From Escherichia coli (GTDB lineage Bacteria > Pseudomonadota > Gammaproteobacteria > Enterobacterales > Enterobacteriaceae): a stretch of DNA of 933 bases. The translations under genes were made by a program, and so were the position numbers. Below the pieces are notes generated by a model. The model saw only the letters and a list, made by a program, of their open reading frames with translations, did no database searches and was not told where the DNA came from. The first letter of the stretch is position 1. Each line of letters opens with the position of its first letter. Of this stretch, positions 1 to 933 are shown piece after piece. The stretch is from NCBI RefSeq assembly GCF_003334335.1, contig NZ_QOWQ01000137.1. The stretch is one strand, 5' to 3'.

Positions 1-933
1 AAAGTGATCCGCACAGAACGGGTAAAAAAAGCCTGTACAAAATGTGACTGCATCGTTGAAGCACCGGCACCATCCCGTCCGATAGAGCGTGGTATCGCGG
101 GCCCGGGGTTACTTGCCCGCGTGTTAACGGGAAAATACTGCGAACATCTGCCACTGTATCGTCAGAGTGAAATCTTTGCCCGCCAGGGTGTCGAACTGAG
201 CCGTGCCTTACTCTCCAACTGGGTTGATGCGTGCTGCCAGTTAATGACTCCGCTGAATGATGCCCTGTACAGTTATGTGATGAACACCCGCAAGGTTCAC
301 ACTGATGACACACCAGTAAAAGTACTGGCACCGGGCAGGAAGAAGGCGAAAACAGGATATATCTGGACGTATGTCCGGGATGACCGAAATGCCGGTTCGC
401 CAGAACCTCCGGCGGTCTGGTTCGCCTACTCACCGGACCATCAGGGTAAACATCCGGAGCAACACCTTCGTCCCTTCCGGGGTATCCTGCAGGCAGATGC
501 GTTCGCAGGTTACGATCGGCTGTTCAGTGCCGAACGTAAAAGCGGCGCGTTGACGGAAGCAGGATGCTGGGCTCATGCACGGCGCAAAATCCACGATGTA
601 TATATCAGTACCAAAAGCGCGACGGCGGAAGAAGCACTGAAACTAATCGGTGAACTGTACGCCATTGAGCACGAAATACGCGGGTTGCCGGTGTCTGAAC
701 GCCTGGCGGTCAGGCAAATGCAGAGTAAACCGCTACTGACTTCCCTGTATAAGCTGATGCAGGAGAAAGAACACACGTTATCGAAAAAATGCCGTCTGAG
801 AGATGCGTTCCGGTATATCAGGAAGCACTGGATTGCGTTGTGCAACTTCTGTGATGACGGTCTGGCGGAGGCGGACAATAACACAGCGGAAAGAGCGCTT
901 CGTGCAGTCTGTCTCGGAAAGAAAAATTACGTG
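1..933 (+). CDS. tnpC: IS66-family transposase (ORF3/TnpC), internal fragment; both the N-terminus and C-terminus lie outside the window
   Basis: Seen in sequence: frame 1 is open across all 311 codons with no stop. Translation begins KVIRTERVKKACTKCDCIVEAPAPSRPIERGIAGPGLLARVLTGKYCEHLPLYRQSEIFARQGVELSRALLSNWV and continues through ...HTDDTPVKVLAPGRKKAKTGYIWTYVRDDRNAGSPEPPAVWFAYSPDHQGKHPEQHLRPFRGILQADAFAGYDRLF...EAGCWAHARRKIHDV...IGELYAIEHEIRG...LAEADNNTAERALRAVCLGKKNY. Established knowledge: these blocks (LPLYRQ HTH, YVRDDR, VWFAYSPDxxGxHP, ILQADAYxGY, CWAHARRK, GELYAIEAEIRG, IDNNxAEN-ALR, GRKNW) are the conserved signature of IS66-family transposases such as those of IS66 and ISEc8. No start codon with a ribosome-binding site and no stop codon is present, so the gene is truncated by the window on both sides. 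The exact IS name is not determinable without a database search. Confidence 0.93.
34..51 (+). other. C-terminal half of the IS66 transposase zinc-ribbon motif (C-x2-C-x-C)
   Basis: Seen in sequence: codons 12-17 encode C-T-K-C-D-C (tgt aca aaa tgt gac tgc). Established knowledge: IS66-family transposases carry an N-proximal zinc-finger domain built from paired CxxC motifs; the first pair would lie upstream of the window. Confidence 0.6.
91..225 (+). other. Helix-turn-helix DNA-binding region of the IS66 transposase (contains the LPLYRQ motif)
   Basis: Seen in sequence: codons 31-75 encode GIAGPGLLARVLTGKYCEHLPLYRQSEIFARQGVELSRALLSNWV. Established knowledge: the 'HLPLYRQ...G(V/I)ELSR(A/S)TL' block is the conserved HTH region of IS66-family transposases. 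Domain boundaries are approximate. Confidence 0.7.
298..900 (+). other. DDE-type catalytic core of the IS66 transposase, including the CWAH motif
   Basis: Seen in sequence: D102/D103 (nt 304-309, HTDDTPV), D166 (nt 496-498, ILQADAFAGY), CWAH at codons 189-192 (nt 565-576, followed by ARRK), and E297 (nt 889-891, within ADNNTAERALR at nt 874-894). All are in frame and intact. Established knowledge: IS66-family transposases have a DDE-like core with a conserved CwAH-rR motif between the second D and the E. Which of D102/D103 is catalytic cannot be decided by eye. Confidence 0.7.

Follow-up and report, generated by a model that had tools for sequence, protein, structure and literature searches.

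IS679 and IS66 are the founding, experimentally studied members of the IS66 family of insertion sequences (IS). IS679 reportedly requires all three of its genes, with TnpC said to be the DDE transposase and insertion said to produce an 8-bp duplication. The two elements share with the element analyzed here the three genes, the 8-bp duplication, GTAAGCG inverted repeats and a TnpC carrying both a DDE triad and a CwAH motif; this likeness is one of description, and function is carried over by homology. In published work on the family, tnpC is considered the gene for the active transposase (PMC6778807). The name ISEc43 is established in the literature: an ISEc43 insertion with a flanking 8-bp direct repeat has been described in SGI1-B-Ec1 (PMC6531882), and the element is listed elsewhere among mobile elements. 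In papers that use the name, we sought a reference accession or an identity value for ISEc43 and found none. The link to the name made below is a proxy, consisting of RefSeq product names and near-identity to copies so named, and not of the ISfinder entry.

We compared the window, that is, the whole 933-nt stretch of Escherichia coli DNA under analysis, with 5,426 complete E. coli genomes using megablast. The chromosome of S1-CAM-02-A (NZ_CP145707.1) contained a 100% nucleotide match, and a further 329 E. coli records were at least 99% identical (330 including the exact match). Among the matches listed, most were annotated as "IS66-like element ISEc43 family transposase". PLSDB returned 84 plasmid records at 99% identity or above, and among the matches listed almost all carried the ISEc43 name. 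The window was 99.3-100% identical in nucleotide sequence to every ISEc43-named chromosomal or plasmid copy from E. coli among the matches listed. At the protein level, three ISEc43-family TnpC proteins were 98.4-99.7% identical over the whole window (311 amino acids) and 98.0-99.5% over window residues 100-300, the span singled out by an earlier note written from the sequence alone. That note had implied an unnamed element, had quoted naming thresholds of 95% nucleotide and 98% amino acid identity, and had named identity above 98% to an already named IS66-family element as the result that would speak against it. Identities above this value were found to RefSeq ISEc43-named copies, which serve as a proxy for the ISfinder entry, and the idea of an unnamed element did not hold. 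We conclude, with a probability of roughly 0.93 and from sequence comparison, that the window is the central part of tnpC from a copy (isoform) of ISEc43, a named IS66-family insertion sequence of E. coli.

The coding content of the window agreed with this assignment. Frame 1 of the plus strand was open throughout, without a stop codon or frameshift, whereas the other plus-strand frames contained many stops. Its translation of 311 amino acids mapped to residues 167-477 of the 537-residue full-length protein. The window exceeded the cut-off of the NCBIfam equivalog model for IS66 transposases (NF033517, transpos_IS66; 346.8 bits against 180) and matched Pfam PF03050, confirming the IS66 family assignment that had been proposed. 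It holds positions 1-273 of the 284 in the PF03050 model, and the domain runs on beyond the window end. The second CxxC pair of the zinc finger, C178 and C181, lies at window nt 34-45. Three further open reading frames, one of 60 amino acids on the plus strand and two of 54 and 103 amino acids on the minus strand, all fall within the tnpC frame and were treated as chance ORFs. A search of both window strands against Rfam, with E values up to 1, matched no family.

Table 1. Features of the 933-nt window, numbered from its first nucleotide; residue numbers refer to full-length TnpC.
Feature	Position (nt)	Strand	Evidence
tnpC segment, codons 167-477 (full length 537), internal to the gene; ISEc43-type IS66-family IS	1..933	+	100% match within the NZ_CP145707.1 tnpC CDS
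zf-IS66 zinc finger, C-terminal end	1..48	+	Pfam PF13005 covers TnpC 138-182
DDE_Tnp_IS66 catalytic domain	88..930	+	PF03050, E 3.3e-92, window residues 30-310
DD pair D268/D269 in HTDDTP (GAT GAC)	304..309	+	Invariant in the six-TnpC alignment
Stretch distinguishing ISEc43-type from ISEc23-type elements (element about 1701-2300)	315..915	+	66-89% per 100 bp, sliding identity
D332 in LQADA (GAT), presumed second catalytic aspartate	496..498	+	Invariant in the six-TnpC alignment
CWAH motif C355-W-A-H358 (TGC TGG GCT CAT), between second D and E	565..576	+	Sequence read
E463 in DNNTAERAL (GAA), presumed catalytic glutamate	889..891	+	Invariant in the six-TnpC alignment

The exact match placed the window within a complete element. 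At this S1-CAM-02-A locus (L001), the window occupies 4001-4933 and tnpC 3503-5116, and the element could be read directly from GTAAGCG to CGCTTAC across 2615-5146, a length of 2,532 bp; on NZ_CP145707.1 it occupies 312951-315482 of the reverse strand. The genes are ordered tnpA-tnpB-tnpC, with tnpA at 2700-3125 and tnpB at 3122-3472, overlapping tnpA by 4 bases. The terminal inverted repeats are imperfect, with arms of 25 nt that begin GTAAGCG and are 84% complementary, and the 8-bp target duplication CAAAATGG is present on both flanks. The features that define the IS66 family, namely the tnpA-tnpB-tnpC arrangement, GTAAGCG inverted repeats and an 8-bp duplication, thus occur together at this locus, with tnpA and tnpB lying outside the window. 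Full-length TnpC scored 443.2 bits with NF033517 (cut-off 180), and the accessory proteins were recognized by their own NCBIfam models (TnpB, NF033819, 119.9 bits against 50; TnpA, NF047595, 84.2 against 74). All four Pfam domains typical of an IS66 TnpC were found: LZ_Tnp_IS66 (60-130), zf-IS66 (138-182), DDE_Tnp_IS66 (196-486, E 2e-94) and DDE_Tnp_IS66_C (494-530). The same termini were found at different sites in S88, in pO86A1 and in an ISEc23-type copy, with 8-bp duplications of TTATAGAC in S88 and ATTACATC in the ISEc23-type copy. Sequence identity, element anatomy and the 8-bp duplication are direct observations.

Around the element, fragments of IS66-family and other transposases, nested and truncated, form an island (492-2472 and 5353-7811 in L001; 260-3125 in L002) that adjoins the gene for the siderophore receptor/adhesin Iha. 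In NMBU-W12E19 (L002), the same insertion was found with the same right junction; there, another IS66-family element, inserted the other way round, has removed the left end and the greater part of tnpA. Both the wealth of truncated or frameshifted transposase fragments in the island of the exact match and the damaged NMBU-W12E19 copy would be expected if the window came from a decayed, non-functional remnant, a fragment of a transposase pseudogene. However, the window contains no stop or frameshift, all catalytic motif residues are intact, and in the L001 copy the three genes, both inverted repeats and the 8-bp duplication are preserved, making such a remnant highly improbable, although the copy from which the window was taken may be truncated beyond it. 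Because the frame, the motifs, the partner genes and both ends are intact and the 8-bp duplication is preserved here and elsewhere, the L001 copy was probably mobile recently and is probably functional.

To examine the catalytic motifs, we aligned six TnpC proteins: the full-length L001 protein, two of ISEc43 type, one each of the ISEc23 and ISEc8 types, and another from the IS66 family, the farthest being 53% identical to the window protein. One residue of the pair D268/D269 is presumed to be the first catalytic aspartate. Besides the acidic residues listed in Table 1, D458, N459 and N460 were invariant, as were the zinc-finger cysteines C141, C144, C178 and C181. Within the CWAH motif, C355, A357 and H358 were invariant, and W356 was replaced by leucine in one distant member. 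TnpC thus appears, from its sequence, to have the arrangement that marks IS66 transposases, a DDE triad whose second aspartate and glutamate enclose CwAH. The strings cited in the earlier note (HTDDTPVKVLAPGRKKAKTGYIWTYV from nt 298, FAGYDRLF and CWAH) are all present, and its view that the DDE residues and CWAH are conserved was right, every motif position being intact and, apart from W356, invariant in the alignment. CWAH is also found in the ISEc8, ISEc22, ISEc23 and IS682 family proteins. We found no solved structure related to TnpC by sequence and no literature describing the CwAH motif.

Between these motifs, the window does differ from ISEc8, as had been suspected: identity to the ISEc8-family TnpC was 63.3% over the whole window and 58.2% over residues 100-300. 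The corresponding values were 65.0% and 61.7% for ISEc22, 85.5% and 81.6% for IS682, and 85.9% and 80.6% for ISEc23; nucleotide identity over the span was about 64-66% to ISEc8, about 64-65% to ISEc22 and about 80% to ISEc23. The window is thus neither ISEc8, ISEc22 nor ISEc23, none of which exceeds 98%. ISEc8 and ISEc22 share with it the family, the Pfam and NCBIfam models and the positions of the DD pair, the second D, CwAH and E, but they are set apart by the low identities just given and by a TnpC of 512 rather than 537 amino acids. Opposite FAGYDRLF, proteins of the ISEc8 and ISEc22 families have YAGFNELY; the "YGGY" block named in the earlier note was not found there. The reference points chosen, ISEc8, ISEc22 and ISEc23, were the wrong ones within the family; they account for the apparent divergence from a "consensus", which does not indicate a new element.

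The ISEc43 copies on the S88 chromosome and on plasmid pO86A1 allowed a comparison over the whole element. Both are 2,532 bp long with the same termini and the same tnpA-tnpB-tnpC layout as the L001 element, and they aligned with it without gaps at 99.57% (S88) and 99.53% (pO86A1) nucleotide identity. Each of their TnpC proteins differs from that of L001 at 7 of 537 residues (98.7% identity, little above the quoted 98% amino acid limit), and four of the seven substitutions fall within the window (G202, K346, S347 and I444); at residue 202, for example, L001 has G where S88 and pO86A1 have E. The strings quoted from the window are identical in the ISEc43-named proteins. Since 99.5-99.6% nucleotide and 98.7% amino acid identity exceed the quoted thresholds of 95% and 98%, the L001 element is best described as an ISEc43 isoform.

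If the window came from a separate IS66-family element that only looks like ISEc43 and has yet to be named, three observations would be accounted for. RefSeq gives the exact-match TnpC, WP_077501991.1, no more specific a name than "IS66 family transposase"; this protein carries the substitutions Q90, G202, K346, S347, I444 and L478 relative to S88 and pO86A1; and unnamed relatives exist, such as WP_020833632.1, with 94.5% nucleotide and 95.4% amino acid identity to the window's gene. However, identity to ISEc43-named copies is 99.5-99.6% for the nucleotide sequence of the whole element and 98.7-99.8% for the TnpC protein, both above the thresholds, and the ends and gene layout are identical to those of the named copies, so we consider this explanation improbable. 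The S88 and pO86A1 proteins bear the RefSeq name ISEc43 family, as does WP_032221816.1, encoded at L002 3503-5116, which is a single residue away from the exact-match protein (K346E). Database records place the exact TnpC protein on 112 contigs and the S88-type TnpC, the commonest of the ISEc43 type, on 711.

WP_020833632.1, a sister TnpC without a specific IS name in RefSeq, occurs in pGF31-A (L007, 2003-3616) and in the Escherichia albertii plasmid pEA04.1 (L008, 1689-3302). It was 95.5% identical over the whole window and 94.5% over residues 100-300, and its divergence from the window's gene is spread evenly along the length. Judged by the quoted thresholds, its element may represent a distinct IS, perhaps one without a name.

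With ISEc43 as the identity of the window, the six lineage-specific residues bear on a finer distinction. Together they may mark a sub-lineage beside iha that stands near the amino acid limit for a separate IS name and might be given a separate isoform designation or name. We advance this tentatively, in a single joint judgement with the core replacement described below, and lean against the two. If the ISfinder reference were farther from the iha-side lineage than the S88 copy is, that lineage would be a new isoform or would take a new name. In pO86A1, the copy (L004, 2615-5146) has a group II intron on one side and the aat genes for dispersin export on the other, and its flanks lack a matching 8-bp repeat (left flank GGAAAGAG+T, right flank GAATGCCT), which suggests later rearrangement or recombination between copies.

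We then compared the ISEc43-type element with a copy from E. coli MRSN346595 that RefSeq names ISEc23 family. The two agree in length and gene layout, and the outer 30 bp are identical at both ends. Their tnpA and tnpB genes are about 98% identical in nucleotides (7 of 426 and 8 of 351 bases differ, respectively), and the N- and C-termini of TnpC are nearly identical. In contrast, nucleotide identity was 92.4% overall and 80% over the span of residues 100-300, and 39 of the 53 TnpC substitutions lie in codons 267-466. Along the alignment, identity per 100 bp was 94-100% both over element positions 1-1200 and at the right end; the divergent patch given in Table 1 corresponds to L001 4315-4915 compared with 3315-3915 of the ISEc23-type locus L006. 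This patch coincides with the span flagged earlier, which is why the region looked unfamiliar when set against other family members.

The same contrast was visible at synonymous sites. Differences were found at 36% of four-fold sites in codons 267-466, compared with 15% in codons 1-266 and 5% in codons 467-537 (Fisher p = 6e-5, codons 267-466 against the rest of tnpC). This makes recombination a likelier cause than relaxed constraint by itself, and the patchy divergence between ISEc43 and ISEc23 suggests a recombinant (mosaic) history. A search for a donor of the ISEc43-type core among plasmids identified none; there the core was found only in ISEc43-type copies and in variants at 93-96% identity, followed by ISEc23 at 80% and ISKox1 at about 75%. 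One possible reading is that ISEc43 arose on an ISEc23-like backbone whose catalytic tnpC core was replaced by recombination from a remoter IS66 relative; it falls under the joint, doubtful judgement given above for the iha-side sub-lineage. In E. coli O157:H7 MB41-1, an intact ISEc8-family tnpC is followed immediately downstream by the frameshifted tnpC of an ISEc23/IS682-like element (L005, 2531-4116), forming another nested IS66-family pair, and this frameshifted element has the ISEc23-like pattern too.

By analogy with other DDE transposases and with what has been published on IS679, TnpC, aided by TnpA and TnpB, would bind the ends of the element, cut them and join them into a target, and insertion would generate the 8-bp target duplication. 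TnpC itself has a leucine-zipper-like region and a zinc finger, followed by the DDE/CwAH catalytic domain and a short domain at the C-terminus. Both the catalytic chemistry and the roles given here to TnpA and TnpB are inferred from family knowledge.

Overall, the window is part of an already known and common E. coli insertion sequence, and a routine, catalogued copy of it. Hundreds of complete E. coli genomes and plasmids carry ISEc43-type copies, often within virulence islands or on pAA-type or F-type plasmids. If the core replacement is true, the DDE core would be exchangeable from one family member to another with no change in the ends, TnpA or TnpB. Wider interest is restricted to the patchy divergence between ISEc43 and ISEc23, which suggests that IS66-family elements recombine within tnpC and means that mosaics can be concealed by names resting on the identity of whole elements.
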